From: a virus
Taxonomy: Duplodnaviria; Caudoviricetes
DNA: 35,876 bases
Direction: 5' to 3' (one strand)
IMG/VR virus record: IMGVR_UViG_3300017565_000340
Span: 1 to 35,876 of that record
Shown here: one piece after another, positions 1,498 through 25,761 of the stretch
Layout: every line of letters begins with the position of its first letter
Numbering within the stretch: position 1 is the first letter of the stretch
The notes under the pieces: generated by a model
Told to the model about the DNA's origin: nothing
Seen by the model: only the letters and a program-made list of their open reading frames with translations
Databases searched by the model: none
Program-made: the position numbers and the translations under genes

Positions 1498-1687
1498 TGG
1501 TGTCGTCCGGGCTCTTGCCGCGATAGATATGATTCAACGCGACATCGCCGGCAGTGAACGCACCCAGGATCACGCCGACCAGCGTCACGAATTCGCCGCC
1601 CGTGAGTTTCGCGGAGAACGCAAATACACCGCAGCCGGTGATCGTGAACAGCAATGCAAGGATGAATTTTCGGCTCAAGTATTTCAT
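1481..1687 (-). CDS. Holin-like two-TM membrane protein
   Basis: 68 aa, SRKFILALL N-terminus, two hydrophobic segments, charged tail; lies between endolysin and Rz. Confidence 0.65.
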   Translation of the reverse strand: MKYLSRKFILALLFTITGCGVFAFSAKLTGGEFVTLVGVILGAFTAGDVALNHIYRGKSPDDTNAGQQ

Positions 1688-2031
1688 TTCACTCCACCTC
1701 TTTCCAGCGAATAGTGATTGCCATCCGGTTTGCGGAAGTCACCGCCCCATCGCGCAAGCTCGTGCATGGACTTCCATTTCTCACCGAGCGGTGCATGCGC
1801 TTCGCTGCGTGTCTGATACTTGCCGTCGATGTACAGGTCGAAGTCCACCGCGAGCCCGAGTAGATGCAGCGAATTCTTGATGCCCTTGCCGGCTTCCGCA
1901 TTAGCCTTCGCCTGCTGCGGGCTTCGCTTGGTCTCGCCGAACGCAACCTCGTAACCCGGCTGCGTGAATACCCATAGGCCGAATTCGCAGACCAGCCGGG
2001 TGAACAGACAGCGCTGTTCGCGTAGAGTCAT
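1684..2031 (-). CDS. Endolysin, M15-family Zn peptidase (L-Ala-D-Glu peptidase type)
   Basis: RS..QQA, SLH..GLAVD and WGGDF..PDGNHYS motifs; start ATG 2031 overlaps the upstream stop (ATGA). Confidence 0.9.
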   Translation of the reverse strand: MTLREQRCLFTRLVCEFGLWVFTQPGYEVAFGETKRSPQQAKANAEAGKGIKNSLHLLGLAVDFDLYIDGKYQTRSEAHAPLGEKWKSMHELARWGGDFRKPDGNHYSLERGGVK

Positions 2032-2210
2032 TTCCGCCCCAGCAACCGCTGCACGGTGTCGGTCTCGTAGATGCGGATCGCAACCCAGATGACCGAGAGG
2101 ACCGTGGCAACGTGAGGAAGCCAGCCCAAAAATGTTGCCACGATGGTTCCTATTGACATGCCGTCCAGTACGCTTTTGAACGGTGCGGATAGATGCTCGT
2201 AAGCGTGCAT
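2028..2210 (-). CDS. Holin-like small membrane protein
   Basis: 60 aa, hydrophobic core GTIVATFLGWLPHVATVLSVIWVAIRIYE; GGGGAG RBS; immediately upstream of the endolysin. Confidence 0.7.
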   Translation of the reverse strand: MHAYEHLSAPFKSVLDGMSIGTIVATFLGWLPHVATVLSVIWVAIRIYETDTVQRLLGRK

Positions 2211-2500: not shown

Positions 2501-3022
2501 CTAAAATCCTACGACGTGAGTGGTGGTGAGGGTGATATCAACTGAGTCAGACAGCCCCGACCCCGCGTCGGTCGCGGTGCATCGAAACGTGCCTACATAA
2601 ACGGACCCAGCACCGCCAGAGGCTGGAGCAGATCGACTGAATGTCGTCGAAGCGGATGACGGCGATGCAATCGTCGCGTTCGTGCCGCTCACATAGGTCC
2701 ATGCGTAGGTGACCGAGCCCACCGGGTTATTACCGGTGCAGGTGATGGACGGGACAAATGCCGTGCATGAGCCCGCCGACGGCGTCACGCATGCGCCAGT
2801 GCCCGTGCTGTCGTCTACGCTGACCGAGAACGCACTGAAGACAAGCCGCTGAACGCCAGCGCTCTCTATATATGTACGCTTGATGTCGAGGTTCGCCCCG
2901 CCGCTTTCGATGAACAGCCGAACCGTGGGGCGGTTGACGCCGGAACTCTCGACGATGGTCTGCTGACCGTGTGCCGCCAGGCAAACGACGCATGCGACCA
3001 GGGCTGTGAGCAACTTGCACAT
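2501..3022 (-). CDS. Putative tail-fibre tip adhesin (PKD/Ig-like C-terminal domain) with Sec-type signal peptide
   Basis: Follows the fibre gene; three-fold (I/F/Y)(V/I)ES.G repeat near the N-terminus; TYAWT..ATIASPSSASTTF..GTFRCTATD Ig-like pattern; signal MCKLLTALVACVVCLAAHG|Q. Confidence 0.6.
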   Translation of the reverse strand: MCKLLTALVACVVCLAAHGQQTIVESSGVNRPTVRLFIESGGANLDIKRTYIESAGVQRLVFSAFSVSVDDSTGTGACVTPSAGSCTAFVPSITCTGNNPVGSVTYAWTYVSGTNATIASPSSASTTFSRSAPASGGAGSVYVGTFRCTATDAGSGLSDSVDITLTTTHVVGF

Positions 3023-3023
3023 G

Positions 3024-3986
3024 TCAGTAGCAGTAGGTGATTCGGCCGTCCTCGCCGCTCACGGATGGCGGGCACGAGGAATTAGGAAGGAGCTGCTTGG
3101 TGGTCCCGACCTTGCCGGTGATGTTCCTGGCGTAGCCGGCCCCCATGTGTTGGGTTACGTTGGATTGCACGATCCGTGCGTCTGGCATATTCCCGGTGAG
3201 CTGAGACGCGGCAATCGCCAGGGCTGCTTGATGCTGGGTGACCGCCGCTTGAGGCACCCGAGCGCTGGGGATCGAGCCTGCATTGAGATTGCTCGCGCTG
3301 AGGTAGTATGCCGAACTCTGGCCGTCGAGCAGATCAGCGTCGAGACCGCTGCCGGAACCATCCACGGTCAGCAGCAGCGACAGGATCTGGGCTGCCGTCA
3401 TTTCTGTGAGTGGATTCACCAACACGAACTGCGTGCCAGAGGCCACCAGAAATGCCGGGATACCGGCCACCAGGTCATTGGCAACCAGTGCCGTGCCGTT
3501 GCGCTTGACGATGGCGCGGGCCGTGAGGCCGTTCACCGATAGCGTCGCCGCACCAGTATTGCTGTTCGTCGGCACGAATGAGATAGGCATGCCGGTGGTG
3601 TAGGACGAGATTGACGGCACCAGGCTACCCACGTAGGTATCGGTGCCCGAAACGCTCGTCAGCGTCTGCATTGAGAAGTTCTGGACTTGCCCGGCCGCGG
3701 CGTACTGGTTACCCGAGGTCGCGTTGGCCACGTTCGTGTGCTTGAACCCGCCCATCGGCAAGTTGGCGCTCGGGACCGTCTGTCCGTCCTTGGAAAGGCT
3801 GTTGGTGAGCGCTGTAGCGATATCAGACAGGGTCGTATTCGCCCAGGTCGAATCGATGGTGGTGCCGGTGACGACGGGGTTGCCGGCCGGCAGGCTGTAG
3901 GTGCCCGAGCCGTCCCGGCTGGCCCAGGTGATGCCAATGGCCGCAACCGCGAGTGCGGCCATGCTGGACTTGATGTAGGATTTCAT
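3024..3986 (-). CDS. Tail fibre protein with an N-terminal Sec-type signal peptide
   Basis: SRDGSGTYSLPAGNPVVTGTTI.STWANTTLSDIA podovirus fibre anchor; VDGSGSGLDADLLDG fibre motif; 22-aa leader ending T-W-A. Confidence 0.85.
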   Translation of the reverse strand: MKSYIKSSMAALAVAAIGITWASRDGSGTYSLPAGNPVVTGTTIDSTWANTTLSDIATALTNSLSKDGQTVPSANLPMGGFKHTNVANATSGNQYAAAGQVQNFSMQTLTSVSGTDTYVGSLVPSISSYTTGMPISFVPTNSNTGAATLSVNGLTARAIVKRNGTALVANDLVAGIPAFLVASGTQFVLVNPLTEMTAAQILSLLLTVDGSGSGLDADLLDGQSSAYYLSASNLNAGSIPSARVPQAAVTQHQAALAIAASQLTGNMPDARIVQSNVTQHMGAGYARNITGKVGTTKQLLPNSSCPPSVSGEDGRITYCY

Positions 3987-5692
3987 GTTCCCGTCTCCAA
4001 GATAATCCCTTGCCGCGCAAGGGCAGCGGCCAATGCCCGGCGACGAGCGGCTTCGCGAGTTTCGTTACGCACCGTGCCGCCGGTGCCAGTAGCTGAGCCG
4101 GATGCAGTGCTCTGTCCTGCGGCTGTTCTGGTAATCGCTTGACCCAGGCGATCGCCGGCGCGGGACGCTGCGCGCGCCCCGGCCTGTGCACGCACGGCGA
4201 GGTCCACCGCAGGAGTGCTCGTGTAGGCGCGACTGGCGAGACTCATGGGAATCCGTGCGACCAAGTCTGTCGCGCTTTGCAGCGGCATGCGTGTTGCTGT
4301 ACCGGAGTCACCGACAATCGGCGCGAATGCCTGAGAGAAGCGCGCCGCGTCGTACATCGGCGATTCGTTCTCTCCGAACATGTAGCCGCGCCGATCCTTC
4401 GACTGCAGCAAATTGGCGAGCGAACGGCCGCTCACATCGCCTTTGGCTGGGTTTACAACGCCGACGCGCTGTGTGAGCAGCATCAAATTGCGGTATTGTT
4501 GGCGCGCGGTACCCAGCGCAGCAGCCCTCTCAGGCGACAGCCCTTGCCCAAGCAGATCGTCCACGTAGTCCTTGACCCGATACAGAGCAATGCCGAGATC
4601 TCGGTCTCCGCTCGGCGTCGTCATGCTCTTGTAGGCAGCCTTTCCGAGCTTGCTGCTCAGCGAACTGAGCTGCCGACCGTCTGCGGTGCCTTCCTGAGCG
4701 AATCGAACGACATCTTCGACGAGTGGATGGCTGTCGAGCCCTTGCACGAGTCCGCGCATGTCGTCCTTGAGTCCAGCATAGAACTGCAGGAACTGACGTG
4801 GCTCGATCGTACGCGGTACGTCGTCAGCAACATCCTGAAAGACATTGCCAATGCGATCCGCGGCACGCGCGAGCACGCCAGCATCGACCACATCCGCGGA
4901 CTCACCGATAGCCTCGGCCGCGCTCCTATTGAGCACAGACGCGTTGTTGGCCTTCAGTGCATTGAAGGGCCCAGACGTCATCGGCTGGGACTCAAGTTTG
5001 GCTTCAAACTGCTGAAGGGCCCTTGATCCCGTAGCCTGCCCAGGCGTCAACCGCATGCCGAGTTCTCGCCCACGGTCCGCAATGCGCTGCATAGTCGGCG
5101 TCAGGCCGGCGGACTCGTCGGCACCGACGCTGCCGAACGTGGAGCCGCCGCCGGTGGTGCGTATCTCTGGAGCCACACGCGCCTCGGCTCCGGCTGTCGC
5201 TTGGCCGGGTGACAGGCGCGCAGCGGCCTGCGCATCCGCCGCGCTTGATGAGCTTGCCGTCGATGCGGCCGGGCTACGTACTGGCACAGTTAACGACGCT
5301 GGCGCACCCTTGATCTGGGGCACGGGCAGACGCGAACCGGCGATGGCGCTCCCAACGATGTTCACGCCCTTCTCGATTCCTGACTCCGGAGTCGGAAACA
5401 CACGAGACATTGCCTGCTCGTACATCTGCGACGGCAGTTCGTAATCTTCACCAGCGATCGCATTGCGAGTGGCGACGCCGGCATTTGCCGCCAGCAAAGG
5501 TAGTGCCGTCAGGGCGTCGATGGGCAGCCTGGCGGTAAGACCAAACTGGCGCTTCACCTGATCGAGAAAGTTGGGCGCCTGCTGCTCCGCACGCTCGTTC
5601 GTGGCGTACTTCTCCCAGGGCTTAGCATCGTTGCTGTTTCCAGCATCGTGCAGATCGCCCTGCTGCGCATACCTTGCCCAGGGGCCGCTCAC
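3983..5692 (-). CDS. Internal virion / DNA ejection protein
   Basis: 569 aa, Ala-rich helical; N-terminal PW..Y motifs; third of three genes between nozzle/GNAT and fibre. Confidence 0.7.
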   Translation of the reverse strand: MSGPWARYAQQGDLHDAGNSNDAKPWEKYATNERAEQQAPNFLDQVKRQFGLTARLPIDALTALPLLAANAGVATRNAIAGEDYELPSQMYEQAMSRVFPTPESGIEKGVNIVGSAIAGSRLPVPQIKGAPASLTVPVRSPAASTASSSSAADAQAAARLSPGQATAGAEARVAPEIRTTGGGSTFGSVGADESAGLTPTMQRIADRGRELGMRLTPGQATGSRALQQFEAKLESQPMTSGPFNALKANNASVLNRSAAEAIGESADVVDAGVLARAADRIGNVFQDVADDVPRTIEPRQFLQFYAGLKDDMRGLVQGLDSHPLVEDVVRFAQEGTADGRQLSSLSSKLGKAAYKSMTTPSGDRDLGIALYRVKDYVDDLLGQGLSPERAAALGTARQQYRNLMLLTQRVGVVNPAKGDVSGRSLANLLQSKDRRGYMFGENESPMYDAARFSQAFAPIVGDSGTATRMPLQSATDLVARIPMSLASRAYTSTPAVDLAVRAQAGARAASRAGDRLGQAITRTAAGQSTASGSATGTGGTVRNETREAARRRALAAALARQGIILETGT

Positions 5693-6963
5693 TGAACCGG
5701 CTCCCAGCTATTAGGATCCGCGGGGTCACCGCCCTTGAAACGATAGCCGCCTTCCTCGGCGCCTATGGCGGGCGCGCCGTCCGGCGCTGCAGGCGGCGAA
5801 GACTGAGCAGTTCCGGCTCCGAGCAAATTCGTATAGCCGTTCTCAATCAGCGCCAGCATGTCCTCCAGGCCCTGGATCTTGTCGGCCGTCGTGGTCTCGT
5901 AGTCCGAGCGCGACGGAAATTTCGACTGATCGAGCTTTGTTTCATAGTCGGACATCGAGCCAACGCCCGGCACACGAGTGAGTGCGGTCAACGTGCTGCG
6001 CATCTGATCGACGCGCCCGTCGAACAGCTTTCCGGCTTGGGTCGGCAGCATTCCTTGTCCAGGACCAAAAGCGTTGATGCCCTGACGACCCTGCTCGAAG
6101 GCTTCCTTCACCTTGGCGAGCTGCTGACGCGCAAGTGCAACCGTATTCAGCTTCATCCGCGCCGTGGTCGCGTCCCTCTGACTCAGCACGCCGGTGTTGT
6201 CGCGCTTGGAGATCACGCTGATCTCGCCAGTCTGCGGGTTCCTCTGCGCCGCCGTGCCGGCCGGCAGTCCGGCTGTCACTATTTCCTCTGGCGTCAACGA
6301 TACCCACGTTGCCGGCGCCTTCTCAGGCTTCGGCGCGACGCGCTGCAGGTCGCCGATGTTCCCGCTTTGCATGTAACGCGCGAGCGATTCAGTCGTGAAG
6401 TCGGAAGGGTTTATGTTCCCAATTTGCGCGCCAGCCCGTTCCGCTGCCGGAAGCGAAGCGACGGGCTTACCGTCTGCGGTGAAACGCTGCTCGCCAGGCT
6501 TGAGCGTAAATCCTTCCTGGGGCTTCTGGGCAGGCGGAAACAACGACCGAAGCGCCTGCCCGCCCACGATCTGCCGGTACTGATCGAGTGGCAGTCCTTC
6601 CATCAGCTGAGCCGCGGCACGCTCACGCGCGGCGGGATCACCGGTGTCGACCAGGCCGGAAGGCGATGCCGAGGCCGGCCCTTGTTGCTGCGGCTGCGCG
6701 CCGCCACCCCGCATCTGGCCCAGCGCATCGGTCAGTCGCTTGCGCTCCGCGTCGTCGGCCGCCGTCTGGTCCTGGTCGGCCTTGTGTTCCGCATAGGCGC
6801 CGCCAATGCCCGCCGCGAGCCGACCAAGCGCCGAAAACGGTGTTGGGCCGACGTAGAACCTCCCGCCCTGCTGCTGCGGCTGCGTGTTGGCCTGCTGCAT
6901 GAGCATCTGTGCGATCTGGCGGCGGCGATCGATCTGCCGAGTTTGCTGGTCGTAGGTGGGCAT
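5689..6963 (-). CDS. Internal virion / DNA ejection protein
   Basis: 424 aa, Gln/Ala-rich; FTLKPGEQRF motif; C-terminal GGYRFKGGDPADPNSWE. Confidence 0.7.
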   Translation of the reverse strand: MPTYDQQTRQIDRRRQIAQMLMQQANTQPQQQGGRFYVGPTPFSALGRLAAGIGGAYAEHKADQDQTAADDAERKRLTDALGQMRGGGAQPQQQGPASASPSGLVDTGDPAARERAAAQLMEGLPLDQYRQIVGGQALRSLFPPAQKPQEGFTLKPGEQRFTADGKPVASLPAAERAGAQIGNINPSDFTTESLARYMQSGNIGDLQRVAPKPEKAPATWVSLTPEEIVTAGLPAGTAAQRNPQTGEISVISKRDNTGVLSQRDATTARMKLNTVALARQQLAKVKEAFEQGRQGINAFGPGQGMLPTQAGKLFDGRVDQMRSTLTALTRVPGVGSMSDYETKLDQSKFPSRSDYETTTADKIQGLEDMLALIENGYTNLLGAGTAQSSPPAAPDGAPAIGAEEGGYRFKGGDPADPNSWEPVQ

Positions 6964-8159
6964 TACACTGCCTCCAGCAAATGCTCAGCGCCGATGGCCG
7001 CATAGTTCACCCGGTCATAACCGTCATCGCCAACAGTGACGGCATCCGGCCTGATCTGACGCACGTCATCCGACATGACGCCCAGCCGCTCTTGCGACTC
7101 GCCCTTGTAGCGATACCGATAGGTCGGGATGCCGTTCGGCAGAATTCCGACACGCGCTATGCTCTCCTTCGCTCGACGGTCAGAACTCATCGCCATCATC
7201 GCGGCAATGCTCGCCAGGCTGATTCCGGTCTGCGTATTCTGCGCGTTGCGCTGCTGTCGATAGTTGTACATGTCGGTCTGGGCGCCATACTGGTTGTTGA
7301 TCGCCCCCATGTAGTCAACGGGTGCTGGGCTGCCAACGTTTGCCGCGGCCCCTGAGTTCATCCCCTGACCCGCACCGCCGCCGCCATACAGCTGCAAGAA
7401 TTCCTGCATCGGAATGTTGCGCTCCGTCAGCCGCTCATTGATGCCCGTGGCGCGGCCCTGGTTTGTCAATTCGGCGTTGGTGATTCGCTCGCCGAACTGC
7501 TGTCCGGCGCGGTCCATGTCGCTCTGACGCACGCGCAGCGCATCTGAGAGCATGCGTGACGCCTCGCTGCCGCCGGCTTGAATGGCCCGGTCTCGCGCAT
7601 CGCCGTAAGCGGCCTGCTTGGTTCGATCGAGGGCGGCCATTTCATTGTTCCAAGCCTCGCTGCCTTCCCGCAGGCCCTGGTTGAGCAGGCGCGTGCGTGT
7701 TGCTTCCCCCTGCTGCTGGAACTGAGGGTCGAGCATTCGCGTCGCTGCACCATAGGTCGCGTCCTCAGCGCGCTGGCGAGCGCCGGCAATATCGCGCTGC
7801 TCGACTGGAATACCACCAACATTCGATTCCTGGACGCCAGTGACCTGTGACGGCAGGCCATTGAGGTTGAACGCGCCTTGGTTTGCGACCTGGCCCAGCC
7901 GGCCAGCTGCGGCCGATCCCATGTTGGTCTGGTTCTGCTGCTGCAGGTCGAATATGGCCTGCTGCTCAGGAGACAGTTCGGTAGTTTGCTCCCAGCGATC
8001 ACCGCCGAGATCTTTGTAGGTCGTGGATCCGAACGGGTTTCGCTCGTTGACGCGATTCAGCGCCGCTCCAGCGCGCAGCGCCTCCAGGTTCAAGCGCCCT
8101 TGTTCGCGCGCGGCCCCGACGTAATCGGGGGCCGGAGGCGGGCTGCCACCACCACTCAT
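6963..8159 (-). CDS. Ejection/pilot protein with C-terminal peptidase S74-like intramolecular chaperone domain
   Basis: N-terminal SPPPAPDY, Gln-rich body; C-terminal SSDRRAKESI..Y.Y.YKG..GVM..V..PDAV..GY..VNY. Confidence 0.75.
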   Translation of the reverse strand: MSGGGSPPPAPDYVGAAREQGRLNLEALRAGAALNRVNERNPFGSTTYKDLGGDRWEQTTELSPEQQAIFDLQQQNQTNMGSAAAGRLGQVANQGAFNLNGLPSQVTGVQESNVGGIPVEQRDIAGARQRAEDATYGAATRMLDPQFQQQGEATRTRLLNQGLREGSEAWNNEMAALDRTKQAAYGDARDRAIQAGGSEASRMLSDALRVRQSDMDRAGQQFGERITNAELTNQGRATGINERLTERNIPMQEFLQLYGGGGAGQGMNSGAAANVGSPAPVDYMGAINNQYGAQTDMYNYRQQRNAQNTQTGISLASIAAMMAMSSDRRAKESIARVGILPNGIPTYRYRYKGESQERLGVMSDDVRQIRPDAVTVGDDGYDRVNYAAIGAEHLLEAV

Positions 8160-8163
8160 GATT

Positions 8164-8586
8164 TCACCTTAGCCACTGACAGTCCTTCGCGTGCAGCGCG
8201 TAGACGAACATGTCGCCGTCCGGTGCTGCGTGAGCGAGGGTGGCCTCGCGGTGAAAGCCCAGGCGCGTCAGAAAGCGTTGCGAGACCGTGTTGGCCTCGT
8301 ACACCAGCGCGGAGATACGCTGGCACCCAAGCTGTCTGAAGGGATAATCGAAGATGACCCGTAGCGCGTGCCGGGTTGCCCAGCGACGCTGGAATGCAGG
8401 GTCAACGGCGATTGCCGCCCAGACGTTAGCGCCGTTGTACATCGTGTAGGCTACGCCCGCAACAAGTGATTCTCCACAGGTGAAGCCTATTGCCGCGCCC
8501 TGTCCCTTGACCCATTGCCCCCGAGTGCGCGCGAATATCCAAGTACCAACATCATCGTCCGCCCCGACCAGGGCATTCAGGTTCAT
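8164..8586 (-). CDS. GNAT-family N-acetyltransferase (tail-module associated)
   Basis: IFDYPFRQLGCQRISALV..N..SQRFLTRLGFHREA; start set to ATG 8586 (ATGA overlap with the nozzle stop). Confidence 0.85.
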   Translation of the reverse strand: MNLNALVGADDDVGTWIFARTRGQWVKGQGAAIGFTCGESLVAGVAYTMYNGANVWAAIAVDPAFQRRWATRHALRVIFDYPFRQLGCQRISALVYEANTVSQRFLTRLGFHREATLAHAAPDGDMFVYALHAKDCQWLR

Positions 8587-10163
8587 ATCTCGCCCGGTTC
8601 GAAGACATAGGAGATCGCAGACAGATGCACGTTGGATTTGCTGCTCTTGATGGTCATGTGGAAGGCACCGGTAAACCCGATGCCCTCGGCGCCATACCAA
8701 TCCTTGAGCAGTTGAATTTCGCCGCCCCACTGCGACTGATCCCACGTCCCAGCATCCCATTGCGCGCCGGTTGACTGTGGAAGCGTTACGGCTCCAGTGG
8801 GCGCGGTGGAAATGAAATCAACATCGACGCCAATCAATATTTCTGCGGGGTTCGAGTCCCATCCGATGATGGGTCGCACCATCGTGAAATGCTTGGTCAC
8901 ATTGGAGTTACTGAACGCGCTGAATGCGCACAGCACCTCCGACTCAATGGCAAGCCCAAGGTCCGCGGTGCCGGTCCAGGCTTTGCAGACAGCGCCCTTC
9001 GCGCCAAAATACAGCTGACCGTTGAACACCTCGAAGCAGTTGGCCGGCCAGCCAGGGTTTGCGCCCATCGGGCGGAACCGGCACCAGCGCTTCGTCACGG
9101 TGTTCATGACGAACTGCTGCTGCAGACCGGAGGCAACTGGCACATTGACCAACAGCATGGTGCCGGCCGGGAACAGCGTGGCCTCCCAGCCAAACGTCGA
9201 TCCGTACAATTGCACGGCAGTCGCCATGGCAGTTTGAATCGCATCCGTGATGGCAACCGTCCGATCCTCTTTCGCCTTCGCCAGACGTGAACAGGGGATG
9301 ACACCGTCCGTCGTGATAATCAGCAGATCACCGCCCAGTTGCTCCAGGCAGCGCCGACCAATGGGCGTACCAATGGTGTAAAGCCCGACTTTGGCCCACG
9401 TCGAGGACGATGCGGGGTCTGTGCCGGCATAGACGGCCACCTCGCCCTCGCTCGTCACGAATACCGCCAGGTCGTCTGATCCGTCGCCGCCATCGAGCGT
9501 CCAGGTGCCCATGGCCATCAGGTAGCCGCCCTTCTTGAACACGGAGCCCAGCGGAAACTTAGTGAGCGCCCCAGCGAACGCCCCCGCATCCGAATACCAA
9601 ACATCGAGCGAATTCGCCGGGATGTACCAAACGCGCTCCTTATGTACATGGATGCCAACCAGGGTATTTGTCGCCACGCTAGTGATCGCGGGACTGGTAC
9701 CAGCGTCGATGGTGGTCCAGGACGACCCGTCATAGCGCAGCATGTCATCAGCGCCATTCACGCACAGCAGCTCGTGACCACCGCCGCTCGCGGTGAAATT
9801 TACATGCTGCCAGCGCGCATGCGTCAGACTACCGACCAGCGCCGAGCCGACCGTTCCCGCGCTCGATACGTCGTAAAGGGAGTCTCCGGCCCAGCCAAAT
9901 AGTTTCTGGTTGCCGGACTCGGGCCGATATGCCGCGAGCGTTTGCACCTCAGCACCACTACCGATGTCGGTAACATGCGCCGCTGATCCCTTGCGCAGCA
10001 TGATGTCCGAGGCCTGCGGAAACCAGTTGTCCAGAATGACCGCGTCTGCCTCGTGCATCGAGGCAATCGAATCGTGCGCGTTCCAGCCGCGAACCGGCGC
10101 TGGCTTGGTCCTCGCTATCGCGACCCGCTTACGCCCGGAACCGCCCCCGGCTGGCGTTCTCAC
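8583..10163 (-). CDS. Tail nozzle / head-closure protein (P22 gp10 / tail tubular B-like)
   Basis: 526 aa, beta-propeller-like composition, PAPVRGWNA N-terminus; follows the adaptor gene. Confidence 0.8.
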   Translation of the reverse strand: MRTPAGGGSGRKRVAIARTKPAPVRGWNAHDSIASMHEADAVILDNWFPQASDIMLRKGSAAHVTDIGSGAEVQTLAAYRPESGNQKLFGWAGDSLYDVSSAGTVGSALVGSLTHARWQHVNFTASGGGHELLCVNGADDMLRYDGSSWTTIDAGTSPAITSVATNTLVGIHVHKERVWYIPANSLDVWYSDAGAFAGALTKFPLGSVFKKGGYLMAMGTWTLDGGDGSDDLAVFVTSEGEVAVYAGTDPASSSTWAKVGLYTIGTPIGRRCLEQLGGDLLIITTDGVIPCSRLAKAKEDRTVAITDAIQTAMATAVQLYGSTFGWEATLFPAGTMLLVNVPVASGLQQQFVMNTVTKRWCRFRPMGANPGWPANCFEVFNGQLYFGAKGAVCKAWTGTADLGLAIESEVLCAFSAFSNSNVTKHFTMVRPIIGWDSNPAEILIGVDVDFISTAPTGAVTLPQSTGAQWDAGTWDQSQWGGEIQLLKDWYGAEGIGFTGAFHMTIKSSKSNVHLSAISYVFEPGEI

Positions 10164-10876
10164 AGCGGCCAGCTACCAGGTGACACGGCAAAGCGCCGCT
10201 CGCGCGTCGGCGTACCGGCAGCCAGAGACAGCGCGCGCTTGGTGCCGTCGCGGTCCATGGCCACGGCGACCAAGCGTTCGTAGGAATTGAATTCCTCTGC
10301 GTAGCTCAGTCCCTTGGCTTTCCGCCATCGCCAATCCAATCCCGCGATCATGATTTCGGCGTCGAGGACCACCTCGTCCTCATCCTTCGTGATCGCGCTG
10401 CGCTGCTCCTGTCCGTCGTCGGACGTGCACCAGTTCCGAGTCACATACTCGAATGCGATTTCCTCACCCGCGCCCGGAGCCGGTAATAGCAACAGATGAC
10501 TGCCGCGGATTCGATACTCAGTGTACGGGCCCGTGCGGCCAAGCGTCTTCGCTACCTGCCAATCCACCGAACTTTTCGGACCGTAGATTGGCTGATTCGT
10601 GGATCGATTCCACAGCGTATCGTTGAGGATGTGCCGATAGGCGTTCGGTGCGCCGATGATGTCCGTGAGCGACCCCTGGTCCTCAGCTGCCGCCGATGGG
10701 AAGGTTTTCTCACGGACGAGAACCTCCCAGTCGTAACGCACGGAAAGCTGCCGGCCTTCCGAATTCAGCAGACCCAACAGCTGCCGGATCGAGGTATCGC
10801 TCGACCCGGTGACAGTATTGGGTTGCGGCAATCCGATGTTCTGGCAGGCCGCGCGGACAATCTCAAGCGCGTTCAT
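10160..10876 (-). CDS. Head-tail adaptor (tail tubular A-like)
   Basis: MNALEIV..AC..IGLP.P, LN..G..L...YDW..L and W.WRKAKGLSYAEEF..YE patterns; synteny. Confidence 0.8.
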   Translation of the reverse strand: MNALEIVRAACQNIGLPQPNTVTGSSDTSIRQLLGLLNSEGRQLSVRYDWEVLVREKTFPSAAAEDQGSLTDIIGAPNAYRHILNDTLWNRSTNQPIYGPKSSVDWQVAKTLGRTGPYTEYRIRGSHLLLLPAPGAGEEIAFEYVTRNWCTSDDGQEQRSAITKDEDEVVLDAEIMIAGLDWRWRKAKGLSYAEEFNSYERLVAVAMDRDGTKRALSLAAGTPTRERRFAVSPGSWPL

Positions 10877-10882
10877 GGGAGG

Positions 10883-11518
10883 CTACGCTGCGGAGCGACG
10901 CCGCGGCTTCTCGGCCTGATCGGTCGGCTGCTGCCGTTCGATGGCTGCAGTCAGCTGATCGATCCTGCCCCGCAGTTCCGCGACTTCGGCCTTGAGGTTC
11001 ACATTCTCATCGCGCAACAGCGCGAGTTCCTCCGCGCCCTTGCCGGCTTCTGCCGAATCGAGATAAGCCTGTGCTCGCCGCTTCAGATCCCGAGCACCCA
11101 TGCCGATTCGCTGCAACGCCTGCTCGGGTGCTGCCGCCAAATCCTCCACCGAGCGAATGCCTGCACCAATGAGCGTTTCCGCTGTTGCGCGTGAAATCGC
11201 CGCCCAGTTGCGCACATGCAGTCCGATGACCTTGTCGGGGTCTGCGCCCTCCTTCCAGTCATTGTACTGCTCGCGAAAGAACTTCGCCCATTCTCGTGAG
11301 TAGTCTCCGCGCTGAGATTGACGATCGATGTAGTCGAGCCATTCGGTGGCGACTTTCTCGACCGTGTCCTTGGAGCCCAGGGGATGCAGGATGGCGAAGT
11401 CCACCGACTTCATGACCAGGCCGCCTTGCGCAATCGTTTCGGCGCGATCTTCTACCGCGCGTTCCTCGAACTCCACAAACGGAGGGCGCGCCTGTTGTGT
11501 TGCTTCACGTAGGGACAT
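10883..11518 (-). CDS. Conserved phage protein with helix-hairpin-helix-like segment and C-terminal coiled coil
   Basis: AETLIGAGIRSVEDLA..LQRIGMG motif; heptad tail; located between decoration and adaptor genes. Confidence 0.7.
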   Translation of the reverse strand: MSLREATQQARPPFVEFEERAVEDRAETIAQGGLVMKSVDFAILHPLGSKDTVEKVATEWLDYIDRQSQRGDYSREWAKFFREQYNDWKEGADPDKVIGLHVRNWAAISRATAETLIGAGIRSVEDLAAAPEQALQRIGMGARDLKRRAQAYLDSAEAGKGAEELALLRDENVNLKAEVAELRGRIDQLTAAIERQQPTDQAEKPRRRSAA

Positions 11519-11588
11519 ATGGGGTACTCATTCCGCGCGTCCCTGCAAAGGGGGTGGGGAGGCGTCCCTGCCTACCCCATGGGACGAG

Positions 11589-12077
11589 TTACGCCGCGGA
11601 ACCGTCGTCAACGAACGGGCGGTCAATCTCGATCTCAGCCAGGCCGGCGGAAGGCGTGCCATCGGCAGAGGCGAATTTCGCGTTCTTCACGCGATCACCG
11701 GCCACCACGGCATCGTCGAGCTGGCCCGGAGTTGCGGTCGCATACACGAGCGCGCCGTCAACCACCGTGCCGGCCTTCGCAACTGCCTTACCCTTGATCT
11801 GGTACCAGCCGTATTGATCGGCGACGTTTGCCGCCATCGCAAAGCTGACTGAACCAATATCGTTCGCCACTAGCAGCGACGTGGACCAGTCGTCGGGGGC
11901 ATACAGCGCCACCGAACCAATCGCGGTATTGGCTGCGCCCTTCAGGTAGATGAACTCGCCTGCGCCGTACACGGGGTCCACCGCGCTGACGACCTGGCCG
12001 AGCGGATGATGCTGCACCGTGTCGGTCTCATGGATGCCCTGAGAGCCGATGATGCTGTCTACGATTCGAAATGACAT
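11589..12077 (-). CDS. Capsid decoration/cement protein
   Basis: 162 aa immediately after the MCP; HPLG..GEFIYLKG and QYGWYQI.G motifs; AGGAGAG RBS. Confidence 0.7.
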   Translation of the reverse strand: MSFRIVDSIIGSQGIHETDTVQHHPLGQVVSAVDPVYGAGEFIYLKGAANTAIGSVALYAPDDWSTSLLVANDIGSVSFAMAANVADQYGWYQIKGKAVAKAGTVVDGALVYATATPGQLDDAVVAGDRVKNAKFASADGTPSAGLAEIEIDRPFVDDGSAA

Positions 12078-12093
12078 GTCACTCTCCTGGGCT

Positions 12094-13092
12094 TCAAGCC
12101 TTCATGACGCCCTGGTTGCGGCGGTTGGAACAGGCCAGATTGCCCTGGAAGATCATCGGAATGATGATGGCGTCCTGATCGACGGACCGAAGCTCTTCCA
12201 TCAGCTCCATGTCGGCATCCTCGTGCACGCACAACTCCAGGTTGTCCGTGTTCACAAAGTAGCCGTGCGCGGTCGGGATGCCAGACGCAGCCGAATCCCA
12301 GAACACATCCGAGCCCTTGTACTTCATCCGCACAAAGCCGGCATCCGCTTCCTCGTCCGAGCTGGCATAGCGCTTGTTCGGCGTTTCGCTCTGCTCGAAG
12401 AAGGTGAAGTAGTCCTCCGACAGGGTGATGAAATCGGGCACCTCGCTGCCATGCGTCAGCCGCAGGTACAGCGGCAGCATGAGCGATTGAATGGTGGCCG
12501 CACTCACCGTGATTCCCGCGCCACCTTGCAGCGGCGAAGCGGCGGACTGAACGACGTTCTTCCAGAACTCGCCCAGTGTGGTGCCAGCATTGATGCCGCC
12601 AACCGTGCCCTGGCCGTTGTCCGCAATCAGCGCCTGCAGACCGTTGATCTGGTTGGTGGCCGCGCCGTCCGAGTACAGGTCGCGCGACAAGCCGTTAGCC
12701 ATCGACTTGCGGCAGTTGTTGATCTTGGTCTTGACGAGATTAACCATGCGGTTCTCGCCCTTGTTGTTGCGGATTTCGCCGCCGTTCGCAGCCACGTTGG
12801 CGCTGACATACCGCCACGGATATTCCGCAGACGTGATGACATCCACTGCCTGGATGTTCAGCTTGTCGTAGCCGCTGTACCGCAGGTACGTCGAGTTCTC
12901 GGCGTATTCCAGCGGGCGCACGATGGACAAGCCACCGTCGAGCCGCGTATAGCGACCCTTCTTGTACAAGCGCCGGAACAGCGCATTGTGATTCGACATG
13001 TTGTCGGCGACTTCCGTCTTGTGATTGCGGTGAGTCGTCGACACCATTTCGGTGAAGACATTGAAGAGACTGGACTGGCCGGGTGACGGCAT
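12094..13092 (-). CDS. Major capsid protein
   Basis: 332 aa after the scaffold; ADN..NHNAL..L..KG..GG..I..PLEYAEN, LYSDG..NQINGL and GNLACSNR..QG motifs. Confidence 0.9.
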   Translation of the reverse strand: MPSPGQSSLFNVFTEMVSTTHRNHKTEVADNMSNHNALFRRLYKKGRYTRLDGGLSIVRPLEYAENSTYLRYSGYDKLNIQAVDVITSAEYPWRYVSANVAANGGEIRNNKGENRMVNLVKTKINNCRKSMANGLSRDLYSDGAATNQINGLQALIADNGQGTVGGINAGTTLGEFWKNVVQSAASPLQGGAGITVSAATIQSLMLPLYLRLTHGSEVPDFITLSEDYFTFFEQSETPNKRYASSDEEADAGFVRMKYKGSDVFWDSAASGIPTAHGYFVNTDNLELCVHEDADMELMEELRSVDQDAIIIPMIFQGNLACSNRRNQGVMKA

Positions 13093-13139
13093 GATGTTGC
13101 TCCGCGAAAATTCCTACTCCGCGAACGCCACCCGGTTCT

Positions 13140-14279
13140 TCAGTGCGTACCCATTGCTTTGCGATACGCCGCTCGGGCGGTGTCCTCCATTGATCCGGGC
13201 TTGGCGGGTGCCGGGGGTGTCCCACGGCGATGCACATTTGCACCGGAGGCCTTGCGGGCAGCGGCGGCTTCCTCCGCTTCCTTCTTGCGGCGCTCGGCTT
13301 CTTGTTTGGCAAGGAGCTTTGCGCGCACTTCGGGATGACTCCAGATCGCTTTTTCGTAGGCTTCCTGGAGATTGGTTGCCCGGCCGTTGACCAAAAGCGC
13401 GGTCATGTCCTCCGCGACGGTACGCGCGTGTTCGTTCTTGGGGTCGTTGAGAAACGCCAGGACGGTACGCTCGTCTTCGTCGCGCAGTTCTTGTTCGCGC
13501 TGCTGGTCGGCCTGCTGGATGCGGGTTTCGAGCTGCTGCACCCGTTGTAGAACGGGTGAGAAGTCGGGAGCCGCCTGTGACGGTGCACGTTGGCGCAGCG
13601 ACATCACAGTGTCGATATTGATACCGTAATCGTCGGCCATCTTCAAGAAGACTTGCGCTTTTGATTCTTCATTGCCGGTGACCATGGTATTGAGCGAAGC
13701 CATGATGTCGCGCACCACGGTCTGCGGCGTGACGCCTCGCTGCTGCATGATCCGCTGGTACGGCAGCATTTCCTGTGCGATGGTGGAGCCAAAGCCCGCG
13801 GCGTCCTTGTACTGCCGAATGCCGTCGTGGAATTGCTGTTCGCGCCGGTGGACCTGCTCGCGGACGTTCTCGGGCAACGCTGACCACGTTTCGGACAATT
13901 CCTTGCGCCAGGTACTCGGAAAGGCGTCGTGAGGCTTGGCCTGCGCCGCTGGGTCAGTCGCAGCCGGGGCGGCGCCTTCGGGCTTGTCTGCAGCAGCGGC
14001 AACTTCAGTGCCAGCTTGCTTCGCGAACCGGCCATCAGCACCGCGGGCCTTGCCGGTTTGCTTTGCTGCAGGGTCGCTGCCCTCGCCAGTTTCTTCGTCA
14101 TGGCCGCCCTCAGCCATCAGGGCGCGGTAGGTTTCGCGCGCCGTGTCCTCCAGGGTGGGCGCAGCGCCACCGGCTTCAGCTTCTGAAGTGGCAGCGCCTA
14201 CAGCATCGGCTTCGCCGCCACCGCCGCCCAAGTCGCCCTCAGGCGCCAGCAATCGCATGGTCAGAAATCGGGGATTCAT
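13140..14279 (-). CDS. Capsid scaffolding protein
   Basis: Acidic low-complexity N-terminus, RGADGRFA and PSTWRKE..W..LP..V.....RRE motifs, coiled coils; directly upstream of the MCP. Confidence 0.85.
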   Translation of the reverse strand: MNPRFLTMRLLAPEGDLGGGGGEADAVGAATSEAEAGGAAPTLEDTARETYRALMAEGGHDEETGEGSDPAAKQTGKARGADGRFAKQAGTEVAAAADKPEGAAPAATDPAAQAKPHDAFPSTWRKELSETWSALPENVREQVHRREQQFHDGIRQYKDAAGFGSTIAQEMLPYQRIMQQRGVTPQTVVRDIMASLNTMVTGNEESKAQVFLKMADDYGINIDTVMSLRQRAPSQAAPDFSPVLQRVQQLETRIQQADQQREQELRDEDERTVLAFLNDPKNEHARTVAEDMTALLVNGRATNLQEAYEKAIWSHPEVRAKLLAKQEAERRKKEAEEAAAARKASGANVHRRGTPPAPAKPGSMEDTARAAYRKAMGTH

Positions 14280-14282
14280 GTT

Positions 14283-14666
14283 CTATTCGCTCCCGTCGAG
14301 AGCCGCGCGTTTCTGCGGCGGCAGTTGGTGCCACGCTCGATGCGCGGCGTCGGTCAATTTCGTATCGTCCTTGGCCTCCTTGTAGGCGCGCTGTCGCGCG
14401 GCCTCCTTGCGCTCCTGATCGAACCCTTCCCATGGGCGTGACCTTGAGCGCTTGAAGTCGTCACGCCGTGCTGTGCGCGTACCGATCACGCGCCCCGTCG
14501 TAGGCGAGACATACGCCTGAATATCGTCCTGCACGAATGAGCCACTGATAATTCGATTCATCCGCTGTCCGCAGCAGCTCGGCACATGATCATTGCGCTC
14601 ATCGACGATGGCGAAATAGTCGGCCCGCCGATGGCAAACACCGCATTCGGCCTCGTATACCGGCAT
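14283..14666 (-). CDS. FmdB-like zinc-ribbon protein
   Basis: MPVYEAECGVC...PSCCGQRMNRIIS, then YVSP.TG..I.TR..RR. Confidence 0.8.
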   Translation of the reverse strand: MPVYEAECGVCHRRADYFAIVDERNDHVPSCCGQRMNRIISGSFVQDDIQAYVSPTTGRVIGTRTARRDDFKRSRSRPWEGFDQERKEAARQRAYKEAKDDTKLTDAAHRAWHQLPPQKRAALDGSE

Positions 14667-15121
14667 CAGGCAGCCTCGCTCACGCAGACGTCGCCGGCCT
14701 GCTTCAGTCCGATGCCGCCCAGCACCAAGTCAGGTGTACCTGTGGACACGATGACCTCGCCCCGCGCCGTCATGCCCCAGCCCGCAACATGACAGGCAAT
14801 CGCCCCCGCAAGCAGCACGCACATGGCGCCATCGGGCCGGCGAGCAATGCCACCGTGGTGGGTCACTGCTCCGCTCGCAGGCCAGGGGCAAACGTAGCGC
14901 TGGCCAGTCTGTGAGTGAGCGAAGCCGTTGATGTAGACCGCCCCGGCCGGCACAGGCACGCCATCGCCCAGATAGATCGTGCCGATGACGCCGGTATCGT
15001 CAACGGCAGTCCCGCCGACGAAACCGCCACCGCCCGCGGGGGGCGGTACGCTGTCGTCCCTCCATAGGCCGTCCTTCCAGAGGCCCTCCTTCCAGACGCC
15101 ATCTGTCCAGACCTTGGACAT
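14666..15121 (-). CDS. Hypothetical virion-associated protein with N-terminal Trp pentad repeat
   Basis: 151 aa; VWTDGVWKEGLWKDGLW then PPPAGGGG linker; coupled to both neighbours. Confidence 0.7.
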   Translation of the reverse strand: MSKVWTDGVWKEGLWKDGLWRDDSVPPPAGGGGFVGGTAVDDTGVIGTIYLGDGVPVPAGAVYINGFAHSQTGQRYVCPWPASGAVTHHGGIARRPDGAMCVLLAGAIACHVAGWGMTARGEVIVSTGTPDLVLGGIGLKQAGDVCVSEAA

Positions 15122-16056
15122 TACGGCACCACATCAAACGGATTGGCCGACCCGTCGCCGGTCAGGGTCTTGCCGTTGATCTTGCTGATATTCACGCCGA
15201 TCAACAGCTGATCGACAATGCCGTCAATGACTGCGGTCGCCGACGACAGGCCACTCAGCTGGGTATCCAGATTCGCCGACGACAACCCCAATGCGGTGCG
15301 CACATTGCCCTGCGCCGTCGAGGTGAGCCCATTGACCGTGCCTCCCACGTTGCCCGTTACAGAGCCCACCGAGCCCGACAGGCTGCCAGTGATATCACCC
15401 ACAATGTCGAACGTCTGCGTGCCGGTAATCGTGCCTGAGGGCGTGGGCCACAGCTCCCAGTAATCGCCGTTGGTCAGCGTGAGCGCGGTTGACGGAGCGA
15501 ACGTCGCAACACCCGTGCCCGTGTCGTATGACGTGATGACTGCCGCAAAATGACGCGCAGGGATCACCAGTGTCATGCCGGCAAGCTGGCTGGTGGATCC
15601 AGGTGCATTGGTGCCCAGATCGGCCGTAGTGGAACTGTGCGTGCCGCTCAACGTACCGCGCGCGTCTTGGCCGGCATTGACCTTGCGCAGGCTGAAACTG
15701 CACACCGGCTGGCCGACCACCGATACGCTATCTACCGTACCCGTGGTGATGACCGCCTCATAGTTGGAGCCCGGCGTATATGCTGCATCCGTGGTCACAA
15801 CTCGCAGATGATTCAGCCCGGTGCGCGCGTCAAAATCGGCCGTCAGCGTGACGCCGGCCGTGATCTCGGTCGTGCCGTTGTCCTTGTAGATCGACACCAC
15901 CGGGGTGCCGGCCAGCGTATAGCTCGCGCCCGTGCTCGGACGGACCGTGCCGAAATTGCAATCGACCGTATCACCGGGCGCGTAATCACCCACGTAGCCG
16001 CCGGCAAATGCGCTGGCAGCAAACAGCAACCCGAGCAGCGTGATGTAACGTTTCAT
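15121..16056 (-). CDS. Thr/Gly/Ser-rich fibre-like protein with Sec-type signal peptide
   Basis: Start set to ATG 16056 (AGGA RBS): MKRYITLLGLLFAASAFA|GGYVGD; GSVGSVTGNVGG fibre-like repeats. Confidence 0.75.
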   Translation of the reverse strand: MKRYITLLGLLFAASAFAGGYVGDYAPGDTVDCNFGTVRPSTGASYTLAGTPVVSIYKDNGTTEITAGVTLTADFDARTGLNHLRVVTTDAAYTPGSNYEAVITTGTVDSVSVVGQPVCSFSLRKVNAGQDARGTLSGTHSSTTADLGTNAPGSTSQLAGMTLVIPARHFAAVITSYDTGTGVATFAPSTALTLTNGDYWELWPTPSGTITGTQTFDIVGDITGSLSGSVGSVTGNVGGTVNGLTSTAQGNVRTALGLSSANLDTQLSGLSSATAVIDGIVDQLLIGVNISKINGKTLTGDGSANPFDVVP

Positions 16057-16066
16057 GACTGATTTC

Positions 16067-16660
16067 CTATCGCGTGATTGGAGCAGCAGCAGGACCGCAG
16101 CGGCCGGAAATTGGGTTGCAGACGGTGCCGCTTGCGGCATCAGTGATGGCAAAAACGCCGTACCGGTTGCCGGTGCTGGTGCTGATAACGAATGGATCGG
16201 CCAGCGGGGTGGCGCCCGTCGCCGCACTCAGCTTGGCATGACCTGACGCAACGAATTCGCGGGCTGTATTCACGGTGTTAATGAATCGAAATGCGACGAT
16301 GTATTCAATGCCCGGCGTGAGCGCCCAGCTGACCGAAGCGATCGCACGCTCATCCCCGCCGCCGATTACTCGAGAAACGGTCGCGCTGCCAATTTCGGCC
16401 AGCGTGTCCTTTCGGTAGACGCCAACTTCAACCTGCTCACCGGATGGAAAGTTGCCGACAAACCAGAACCCGACTGCCGTTACGTTCTCCCCTACAACGG
16501 CAACCCTGGATTCGCTGGTCGCGTAACTCAGGTAATGGGCATCGGAGGAACTGCCGGTATAGCCACTGGCAAACCTGACGTCGTTTCCAATCGTTGCCGC
16601 GAACGACAGCGACGCAACACACCACAGTAAGGCCGCCAGGAGAACCTTTTTGGCTATCAT
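16067..16660 (-). CDS. Beta-rich protein with Sec-type signal peptide
   Basis: MIAKKVLLAALLWCVASLSFA|A; VEVGVY and ALTPG.EYIVAF beta-sandwich-like pattern; ATGA coupled to the upstream gene. Confidence 0.75.
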   Translation of the reverse strand: MIAKKVLLAALLWCVASLSFAATIGNDVRFASGYTGSSSDAHYLSYATSESRVAVVGENVTAVGFWFVGNFPSGEQVEVGVYRKDTLAEIGSATVSRVIGGGDERAIASVSWALTPGIEYIVAFRFINTVNTAREFVASGHAKLSAATGATPLADPFVISTSTGNRYGVFAITDAASGTVCNPISGRCGPAAAPITR

Positions 16661-17718
16661 GCGAGGTCATCCAGGTTGATGAATTTGTTACCGAACTCGT
16701 CAATGCCCGTGAGGGTGGCGAGGGTCTTATGGAAGGCCATCAACTGGGTGTAGCATTTTTGATCTTGCGTGGGATAGTCAGGAGGGTGTCCACCTGGACG
16801 GTCGCCGCCATTCCAATACGTGAATATCAACACGCCACTGAGCCACGAATCTGCGAAGCCCAGGTACTTCTTGGGGGTCCCGCCGCTAACAGTAATATCC
16901 TGGGTCTTCCACTCACCATCTTGAAACCAGTTGATGTACCTGTCGCCCAGGTACTCCATCGCAAGCTGATTGTCGTACCACAGCCTCCAGACTTGACTGG
17001 CTATATCGCTGTAAGATGGGGTGATCGCGACGCAAATATCATGGTACTGCCCATCCACCTCCAGGCATCTGTCGCACACCTTCAGAAAATTATCTTGGTT
17101 ATGCAGCCCAAGCTCGCTGTACATGGTCCAGCCATTAGGGACGCCGCCTGATCCCCACGCAATGTGATTATCCAGGCGACCAACACCGGTCGCAGTGGGA
17201 TCGCTCTGGCTACCACGAAGGAATTTTGTGAAGCCAGCCAAATCTGTAGTGAAGTCGAACCCCACAGGAAATTTCATGCGGACCGCATACCACATGGTTT
17301 CGCCGGCATATACCTTCGGGACCCCGGCGCTGGTGGAGATGCCCCCACCGAAACCTCCGTTTGTGGATGGACTGCCGCCGTTCCAGCCTCCACTGGAATT
17401 CTTTTGAATGCTGTATTCTGCGCAAGTCGTCTTTCCAGCCGCGGCCTCCCCGGACACTGCTCTAGCCCCATAACCGTTCGTGTACCTGCCCCAATAGGAA
17501 TGGCGCTTCCCTGCTACCCCAGTCCCTTCGTCCACTGAGCCAATCGCATTCCCAGGTGTTAGCCCATCGAAATCGATCAGAAGGTCGGGCGTGAACGATC
17601 CACCACCCCCGCCCCCCGGCGTCGGAAACAGCCGCGCCCCGCTCTGTATGATCGGCCCAGCCATGGCGGCGGGGATAAACAGGCCAGAGGTTGAGGCGAG
17701 GAATTGGCGGCGGTTCAT
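16657..17718 (-). CDS. Tat-signal protein, putative jelly-roll polysaccharide lyase / lectin-like domain
   Basis: MNRRQFL..AMA|G twin-arginine signal; Gly linker; GETMWYAVRMKFPVGFDF..KFLR, GQYHDI.V, RLWYDNQL and FTYWNGG patterns. Fold call is tentative. Confidence 0.7.
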   Translation of the reverse strand: MNRRQFLASTSGLFIPAAMAGPIIQSGARLFPTPGGGGGGSFTPDLLIDFDGLTPGNAIGSVDEGTGVAGKRHSYWGRYTNGYGARAVSGEAAAGKTTCAEYSIQKNSSGGWNGGSPSTNGGFGGGISTSAGVPKVYAGETMWYAVRMKFPVGFDFTTDLAGFTKFLRGSQSDPTATGVGRLDNHIAWGSGGVPNGWTMYSELGLHNQDNFLKVCDRCLEVDGQYHDICVAITPSYSDIASQVWRLWYDNQLAMEYLGDRYINWFQDGEWKTQDITVSGGTPKKYLGFADSWLSGVLIFTYWNGGDRPGGHPPDYPTQDQKCYTQLMAFHKTLATLTGIDEFGNKFINLDDLA

Positions 17719-21686: not shown

Positions 21687-21714
21687 ATTGTGTCGCACGG
21701 ATCTGTGGTGTCAA
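21687..21714 (-). promoter_or_regulatory. Putative sigma70 late promoter
   Basis: Minus strand TTGACA-N16-CACAAT in the ~230-nt gap upstream of the terminase genes. Confidence 0.4.
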
Positions 21715-25735: not shown

Positions 25736-25761
25736 GTTGATATCTCCTGTGGAAATGGAAA

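Follow-up and report, generated by a model that had tools for sequence, protein, structure and literature searches.

The late operon and its leader-bearing proteins

The virus record IMGVR_UViG_3300017565_000340, whose whole length is called the window below, is a 35,876-base provirus record that is 96% complete. Its minus strand is a podovirus late operon containing terminase, portal, scaffold, major capsid, decoration protein, adaptor, nozzle, GNAT, three ejection proteins, fibre, and lysis genes. The portal, scaffold, capsid, decoration protein, adaptor, nozzle, and first ejection protein are matched in identical order in Myxococcus phage Mx8, and the element is a short-tailed, Mx8-like podovirus prophage. 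Five genes of the operon encode proteins that begin with an export signal, or leader, and these proteins appear to be virion appendages that are exported and matured in the periplasm. They are listed here with one leaderless neighbor.

2501 to 3022, minus strand: 173-residue protein encoded after the fibre, with a Sec-type leader of about 19 residues, 4 mature cysteines, and a PKD/Ig-like C-terminal part.
3024 to 3986, minus strand: tail fibre of 320 residues (tail-fibre PHROGs), with a 22-residue Sec-type leader (3921-3986), a conserved tail-anchor domain from S23, a shaft, and the C-terminal cysteine pair C305/C319.
14666 to 15121, minus strand: leaderless 151-residue protein with Trp-rich N-terminal repeats; by eye, many loci have a similar small Trp/Phe-repeat gene after the 15121-family gene.
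15121 to 16056, minus strand: putative appendage hub of 311 residues, with an 18-residue Sec-type leader, an Ig-like domain (21-123) carrying C33/C119, a second beta domain, a Thr/Gly linker, and a helical stalk (predicted local distance difference test, pLDDT, of the model 81.5).
16067 to 16660, minus strand: DUF4082-like jelly-roll protein of 197 residues, with a 21-residue Sec-type leader; nearest to viral clusters.
16657 to 17718, minus strand: polysaccharide-lyase-like protein of 353 residues, with a twin-arginine leader (RRQFL, AMA↓G; the arrow marks the cleavage site) and 5 cysteines.

An earlier sequence-only reading of this DNA had proposed all five leaders, and each open reading frame was found at its proposed coordinates on the minus strand, four with Sec-type leaders and one with a leader for the twin-arginine translocation (Tat) pathway. 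Its mature cysteine counts (2, 4, 2, and 2 for the Sec-type chains of the fibre, the protein after it, 15121, and 16067; 5 for the Tat-type chain) were reproduced. Leaders were called with our own rule, which looks for a charged n-region, a hydrophobic core, and small residues at -3/-1. The rule flags 6 of the 33 window genes, namely the five and the membrane protein at 1481-1687. The core genes for head, tail, and ejection proteins, which had been described as leaderless, are all left unflagged. When the rule was applied to homologues, 64 of 65 proteins that bear leaders by alignment were flagged, along with 2 of 175 binned as leaderless, one of which (P0130) truly has a leader; in Mx8, 0 of 45 coding sequences at 1-24000 were flagged. 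The exact cleavage site that it gives is often a few residues away from the site read from alignments.

The fibre begins MKSYIKSSMAALAVAAIGITWA↓SRDGSG, the protein at 2501-3022 has ...VVCLAAHG↓QQ, 15121-16056 has ...FAASAFA↓GGYVGD, 16067-16660 has ...ASLSFA↓A, and 16657-17718 has MNRRQFLA...AAMA↓G. By the rule and by alignments, the features of Sec export and signal peptidase I cleavage are present in the fibre and in the 2501, 15121, and 16067 proteins: a positive n-region, a hydrophobic h-region, small residues at -3/-1, and no proline at +1. A later hydrophobic window is absent from three of the Sec-type proteins; the fibre has one, which by eye is conserved shaft common to its leaderless homologues. 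Internal start codons are absent in frame at the mature N-termini of the fibre, the protein after it, and 16067. In 15121 codon 22 is a GTG and in 16657 codon 19 is an ATG, neither with a Shine-Dalgarno sequence. Mis-called starts can be dismissed because leaders of this kind recur in dozens of homologues and the starts overlap upstream stops. An assembly artefact was ruled out as well, with an identical fibre protein present in JGI/IMG, Logan, and ENA and the parent contig (L058) in agreement. A search with the DNA pattern of the leader junction matched 1 viral, 0 genome, and 5 metagenome stretches.

The gene junctions are tight: -4 for portal/16657, -4 for 16657/16067, +10 for 16067/15121, -1 for 15121/14666, -4 for the ejection gene/fibre, and +1 for the fibre and the gene after it. 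A lysogenic moron or superinfection-exclusion lipoprotein was also considered and rejected, as the genes overlap late genes and have no lipobox at a usable position.

The tail fibre and its homologues

The fibre gene comes after the genes for ejection proteins in a tubeA/tubeB tail module, and the shaft of its product resembles the gp47 tail fibre of 9B45. A canonical cytoplasmic fibre has its anchor at Met1 and no export signal; here a 22-residue leader precedes the anchor, and no internal start lies near it. The best 120 of 4,197 homologues were surveyed (7,999 candidates scored) with a query that included the leader, so that the counts are not a prevalence. Of these, 35 have a leader, 82 start at the anchor, and 3 fall outside the pattern (P0006 with a leader, two without). 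The leader is 21-28 residues long in the 36 leader-bearing proteins, and one of the 84 leaderless proteins starts after a six-residue upstream call. Leaderless fibres nearly all begin M-[ASP]-R-[DN]-G, and cleavage at TWA↓S would restore the small-residue-R-D-G N-terminus that these proteins have after removal of Met. In 41 leader-bearing fibres, the median identity is 0.36 for the leader versus 0.75 for the anchor, and 30 of the 41 leaders end in a small residue with no proline at +1.

The cysteines follow the leader. Among fibres of the best 120 that have any cysteine, the mature count is even in 18 of 19 with a leader versus 25 of 67 without (Fisher p 1e-5, a type of value that overstates the association because there are few independent fibre pairs and the 15121-family leader has a single origin). 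The pairs sit at many different places in unrelated distal domains. A profile search provided a further 114 new proteins, of which 24 without the anchor pattern and 3 with false anchors were dropped. Its 6 leader-bearing fibres have 4, 6, 10, 2, 2, and 0 cysteines, and its 81 leaderless fibres comprise 24 even, 41 odd, and 16 with none (24 of 65 even).

On a quick tree of 133 fibre domains there are 8 changes of leader state, at least 3 of them forced by supported branches, and leaderless fibres are nested among leader-bearing ones; a FastTree of 202 fibres has 9 changes. On these trees, the leader would be a reversible gain or loss that has changed state in fibres at least 3 times. One further leader-bearing fibre, of 666 residues (L059:5678-7678), has by eye a coiled C-terminus typical of self-cleaving chaperones, and export may coexist there with intramolecular chaperone processing.

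The head-region cassette

The genes between the portal and the scaffold form a cassette in which one or more variable payload genes precede a 15121-family hub, itself often followed by a small Trp/Phe-repeat gene that lacks a leader. The best 120 of 1,072 homologues of 15121-16056 include 30 with a leader and 90 without, one of the latter being an N-terminally cut record. All 30 leader-bearing members have an even number of cysteines and share both C33 and C119. The other 90 comprise 17 with even counts, 43 with odd counts, and 30 with none (17 of 60 even), and only the cut record among them has both C33 and C119. Mean cysteine content is 6.7 in leader-bearing members versus 1.1 in the rest. 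The predicted model places C33 on strand 30-36 and C119 on strand 117-123, both within a single Ig-like domain. Six genes matched the family in the genome collection, all leaderless, and no homologue of the cassette was found in cultured phages.

The C-terminal tag of the 16067 protein matches the tags of genes without leaders that occupy its slot in L081, L106, and L112, with two cysteines added in 16067; no relatives of this protein were found in viral contigs. The 16657 protein is polysaccharide-lyase-like by features (0.92) and by predicted fold, with a template modelling score of 0.60 to a polysaccharide lyase family 14 (PL14) model when an Atlas model was compared (a single-sequence fold had a pLDDT of 30). 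It has no Pfam match at E 0.05, the PL14 profile PF14099 included. A Tat leader is marked by RRxFL, a weak h-region, and an A-x-A site, and 16657 carries all of these. Its mature N-terminus resembles Sec-led proteins of the same slot in L048 and L050. The odd cysteine count fits Tat because this pathway moves folded proteins.

Among upstream neighbors of the hub, 4 of 9 in the 6 loci flagged as leader-bearing pass the leader rule versus 1 of 108 in the 62 loci without a leader. Among those 6 loci, L064 had been flagged in error, L049 has spurious neighbors, and the neighbor in L094 is cut by the contig end. In the clean leader-bearing loci, L048 and L050, all 4 of 4 upstream neighbors pass. 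By eye, the leader-bearing cassette also occurs in an HK97-like long-tailed phage (L048, L149), in other podoviruses (L050, L066), and in a Mu-like element (L049). In incomplete records, the leader-bearing cassette occurs five times without an anchor-type fibre, and the leader-bearing fibre twice without the cassette.

The proteins of 16657, 16067, and 15121 may be chained through short terminal tags onto the leaderless 14666 protein, a candidate cytoplasm-made anchor, to give what is likely a head or neck appendage; this is the weaker part of the proposal. Two observations stand beside it. A leaderless, undescribed three-gene cassette, with a payload ending in a Gly-rich tag, an Ig-like hub, and a Trp/Phe-repeat protein, is widespread in loci L051-L141. 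In the long-tailed, cassette-bearing phage of L149, another leader-bearing gene with 4 mature cysteines (L149:10262-10765) directly follows the distal tail gene.

The protein encoded after the fibre

The protein at 2501-3022 had been called a tip adhesin, a name that was not confirmed: its matches are a PKD-like one to PF22352 at E 2e-5, under the cut-off, and one to phrog_25859, a profile that begins at residue 21, where the mature chain begins. Its place on the fibre tip is a guess. A lipoprotein reading, based on the cysteine at position 11, was rejected because that position is too early for a lipobox. No relatives were found in viral contigs or in cultured phages. Separately, the genes after the fibre in Mx8 (p66 and p67, L142:15308-16506) and Mx9 (p15, L145:6467-7192) encode Cys-rich proteins with leader-like N-termini, and p67 and p15 are SGNH hydrolase-like by eye.

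Probable attachment to the virion

Attachment of the fibre is best considered alongside two leaderless tail genes.

8583 to 10163, minus strand: tail nozzle (tubeB), leaderless; matches the tubular tail B protein of Sulfitobacter phage phiGT1 (E 4e-62) and is the predicted docking partner of the fibre anchor in complex prediction.
10160 to 10876, minus strand: tail adaptor (tubeA), leaderless; phrog_6013, 29% to Mx8 p51.

The leaderless gp21 of phiGT1 matches the fibre anchor over its first 40 residues (E 1e-9). According to the available part of PMC10386132 (Table S3), gp21 was found in virions by mass spectrometry with 20 spectra, 18 copies being expected; gp4 and gp5 of the portal-scaffold slot were also found there, though they are not homologues of the window proteins. 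In Mx8 p64 (AAK94399.1) and Mx9 p14 (WFG54121.1), the anchor lies behind a 28-residue leader ending ASA↓T, and each protein has 2 cysteines. The trait is not private to the prophage, being present in two cultured phages, nor was it gained a single time. The only anchor copy in the whole Mx8 genome is p64, just as the fibre holds the only copy in the window record; for Mx9, the search covered 15.6 of 53.5 kb. Mx8 is an infectious, P22-like transducing phage (PMC6070905, seen in part). In an unrelated case, the leader rule flags all of gp101-104 of Cellulophaga phage phi19:1 and none of six structural-region genes upstream of them; RefSeq annotates gp101-104 as virion proteins from tandem mass spectrometry proteomics.

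Complex prediction of an anchor trimer with nozzle and adaptor scored 0.45 versus 0.00 for the best control, a replaced nozzle included; this is a weak score, given that 116 of 157 solved pairs and 2 of 215 mismatched ones attained the mark used, only 18 of the solved pairs and both mismatches at 0.60 or less, and that the job was unlike the calibration. The runs share at least 74% of contacts, and the pLDDT of the partners is at least 83. A search by sequence found no solved relative of the nozzle, the adaptor, the fibre anchor, or the 15121 family.

The prophage and its host

1048 to 2210, minus strand: lysis cassette, with a holin-like gene (2028-2210), an M15 endolysin (1684-2046), a small membrane protein (1481-1687), and an Rz-like gene (1048-1497) with a nested lipoprotein (1086-1313).
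21687 to 21714, minus strand: sigma-70-like promoter match (10 of 12 positions) upstream of the small terminase, a candidate late promoter.

From its size and position, the product of 2028-2210 would be the holin. The promoter scan of the window is weak, with 3 sites versus 5.3 expected by chance, and this same scan found no match upstream of or inside the five leader genes. The first ejection protein (6963-8159, minus strand) ends in a Peptidase_S74 chaperone domain, as does phiGT1 gp17.

In the parent contig, host genes (a TIGR03013 glycosyltransferase and bacterioferritin) adjoin the provirus, which has an Rz/Rz1-like pair; the host would be diderm because of these flanking genes and this pair. 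One labelled homologue (P0128) gives Steroidobacteraceae as a lead to the host family. By eye, a partial tRNA-Glu-like 3' end lies at L058:5653-5700 just left of the provirus, beside the host bacterioferritin and PrsK/TIGR03013 genes, and is likely the attachment site; ARAGORN found no whole tRNA in the contig. Another tRNA-like stretch, with a T-arm and a remnant of the anticodon arm by eye, occurs at 25775-25840 (minus strand) within the open reading frame 25361-25846. At 27447-28100 (plus strand), directly after a repressor-like gene, is a CC0125/CC1285-family lipoprotein gene, a probable lysogen-expressed moron. By eye, the C-terminal end of its product resembles that of the scaffold (13140-14279).

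A proposed periplasmic branch of virion assembly

The export and oxidative folding of the appendages are strongly supported, at the level of sequence, because the leaders front domains that are otherwise leaderless, vary in sequence while keeping the anatomy of signal peptides, and accompany paired cysteines. These parts of the original proposal stand on the comparison of homologues, while its third part, attachment to virions, is supported indirectly. For the four Sec-type proteins, Sec export is the expected route in all likelihood, and oxidation of a DsbA type is very likely. Tat export of 16657 is favored on balance, a call that depends on one sequence. Attachment of the fibre to nozzle and adaptor is likely. 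Taken as a whole, it is probable that the appendages are exported, become oxidized in the periplasm, and dock onto virions at lysis or later.

It is taught that tailed phages finish their assembly in the cytoplasm, and in P22 and T7 fibre attachment is the last, spontaneous step. The long fibres of T4 are likewise added last (PMC3185693, in its available part). Under the proposed route, late transcription would provide core parts that are made in the cytoplasm and appendages that are sent to the periplasm. There, the leaders would be cut and the paired cysteines of the four Sec-type chains oxidized. Holin, endolysin, and spanins would then mix the two compartments, and the anchor trimer would dock on the nozzle and adaptor of the finished virion as the inner membrane opens or just after. 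The probable gain is twofold: receptor-binding parts that are disulfide-stapled and more durable, and sugar-binding or sugar-cutting proteins that are kept out of the cytoplasm.

Several findings weigh against this route. Proline at +1 blocks signal peptidase I, and 11 of the 41 leader-bearing fibres read L/I-M-A/G↓P-R, so that proline stands at +1 and the ancestral start is kept as an internal Met. Leaders ending M-A-P or M-G-P right before the anchor are seen in P0006, P0009, P0027-P0029, P0035, P0048, P0067, P0092, P0255, and P0259, and may be uncleaved anchors, dual starts, or evolutionary intermediates. In the best 120, 16 of 35 leader-bearing fibres have no cysteine (15 leaderless ones have none). 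Only 4 phylogenetically independent fibre pairs lie on supported branches; these go in the right direction on average 2.5-3.0 times and in the wrong direction 0.0 times, with p 0.25-0.5, and cannot reach significance. The 15121-family leader arose once (support 99). Both homologues of 16657 that were found are without a twin-arginine leader. In phi19:1, gp101 and gp104 have odd mature cysteine counts (1 and 11, by the rule), and these proteins are not homologous to those of the window. Finally, the AlgoCIS particle is built in the cytoplasm. Its baseplate protein Alg11 contains a disulfide (PMC13314943, in its available part), and because of this disulfides alone are no proof of export.

It is also possible to read the proteins as exported but never part of the virion, acting as free decoys, as masks of the receptor, or as matrix-clearing enzymes and adhesins that aid the release of progeny. 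Bdellovibrio does secrete phage-like fibres with signal peptides for its own surface (PMC10769870, as far as available), and the lyase-like 16657, with its Tat leader, could work as a free enzyme; for 16657 alone this is possible, if doubtful. For the set it is unlikely. The leader genes overlap or abut late structural genes, unlike the lipoprotein gene beside the repressor, and the anchor is kept at its high median identity. Moreover, neither the window record nor Mx8 has a leaderless anchor copy that might be the true fibre, yet Mx8 is infectious.

Alternatively, the leaders may be uncleaved inner-membrane anchors or part of a dual-start design, giving membrane-tethered fibres or a cytoplasmic form from an internal start. 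The Pro+1 leaders, the leaderless fibres nested among these on the tree, and the ATG at codon 19 of 16657 would suit such a design. It is nonetheless quite improbable. In the window fibre the TWA↓S site is clean and residue 23 has no start codon nearby; in the 15121 family, each of the 30 proteins with a leader has a short one that ends in a small residue, and each carries paired cysteines, which a cytoplasm-facing protein would not need. Very improbable is a view in which only some of the five join the particle (the fibre but not the head-region cassette) or export mainly hides proteins from cytoplasmic defence sensors or proteases: nearly half of the leader-bearing fibres are Cys-free and the cassette, which has no cultured homologue, moves between unrelated phage types, but in the 15121 family the gain of cysteines goes with that of the leader, and the portal-scaffold slot of phiGT1 holds the virion proteins gp4 and gp5, albeit non-homologous ones.

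Returning to export followed by docking, there is a reasonable case, short of a firm one, that several unrelated tailed-phage lineages run a second, periplasmic branch of morphogenesis, that leader gain and loss is reversible, and that the virion becomes infectious only once lysis mixes the compartments, with Mx8 already such a phage. If so, the assembly route would be new, although built from known protein families, and lysis would become an assembly step. The Sec, Tat, and Dsb pathways of the host would be phage dependencies and possible targets of defence. Plaque counts made on intracellular phage would fall below the number of particles, periplasmic expression would be required for recombinant fibres of these phages, and late genes with signals would at present be wrongly labelled as morons by annotation pipelines. 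The question is directly testable because the same leader-bearing fibre is present in Mx8, a standard tool phage of Myxococcus xanthus, which is tractable and non-pathogenic.

Comparison with known systems

The earlier reading knew of no described precedent, and no account of exported tailed-phage fibres was found in the literature covered (the available part of PMC10792529 included), from which subscription journals were largely absent. Several systems share single elements with the one described here. Filamentous phage pIII and pVIII, spanins, and signal-arrest-release (SAR) endolysins use Sec, signal peptidase, and periplasmic disulfide formation. However, filamentous phages are extruded without lysis, and spanins and endolysins are not virion parts. 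The fibres of Bdellovibrio bacteriovorus known as MAT are phage-fibre-like trimers with signal peptides (PMC10769870). They are set apart, by their description in the available text, as bacterial surface adhesins with a conserved 130-residue beta-rich domain and no virion, whereas the window genes are phage late genes with a phage anchor domain after the leader. Legionella phage LME-1 has a podovirus fibre trimer that contacts adaptor and nozzle (PMC12407071, in its available part), a geometry that is assumed here. Its fibre (ALK43937.1) was rejected as a precedent, being leaderless, with 0 cysteines and no match to the anchor profile.

Among cultured tailed phages, gp101-gp104 of phi19:1 and gp19 of Burkholderia phage BcepC6B are alike in having Sec-type leaders on late proteins annotated as fibres or lyases; gp19 has 4 cysteines and lies beside the leaderless fibre gp18. 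These proteins have no sequence similarity to those of the window. Phages phiGT1 and Stenotrophomonas phage BUCT555, with Mx8/Pr-like tails, have a homologous anchor (gp21 and QQM14856.1) in the same slot after the ejection genes, but, unlike the window fibre, both proteins are leaderless, have 3 cysteines each, and are made in the cytoplasm. In the available text of PMC6070905 there are 0 matches to "signal peptide," and in that of PMC10386132 there is 1 unrelated match to "signal," so that the leader of Mx8 and Mx9 goes unmentioned there. These two phages are among the closest known counterparts. They differ from the window in shaft and tip, in host phylum, and in having no 15121-type cassette, while Mx8 p64 and Mx9 p14 share with the window fibre the set and order of virion genes around it, an anchor that is 65% identical over residues 22-69, a Sec-type leader, and 2 cysteines.

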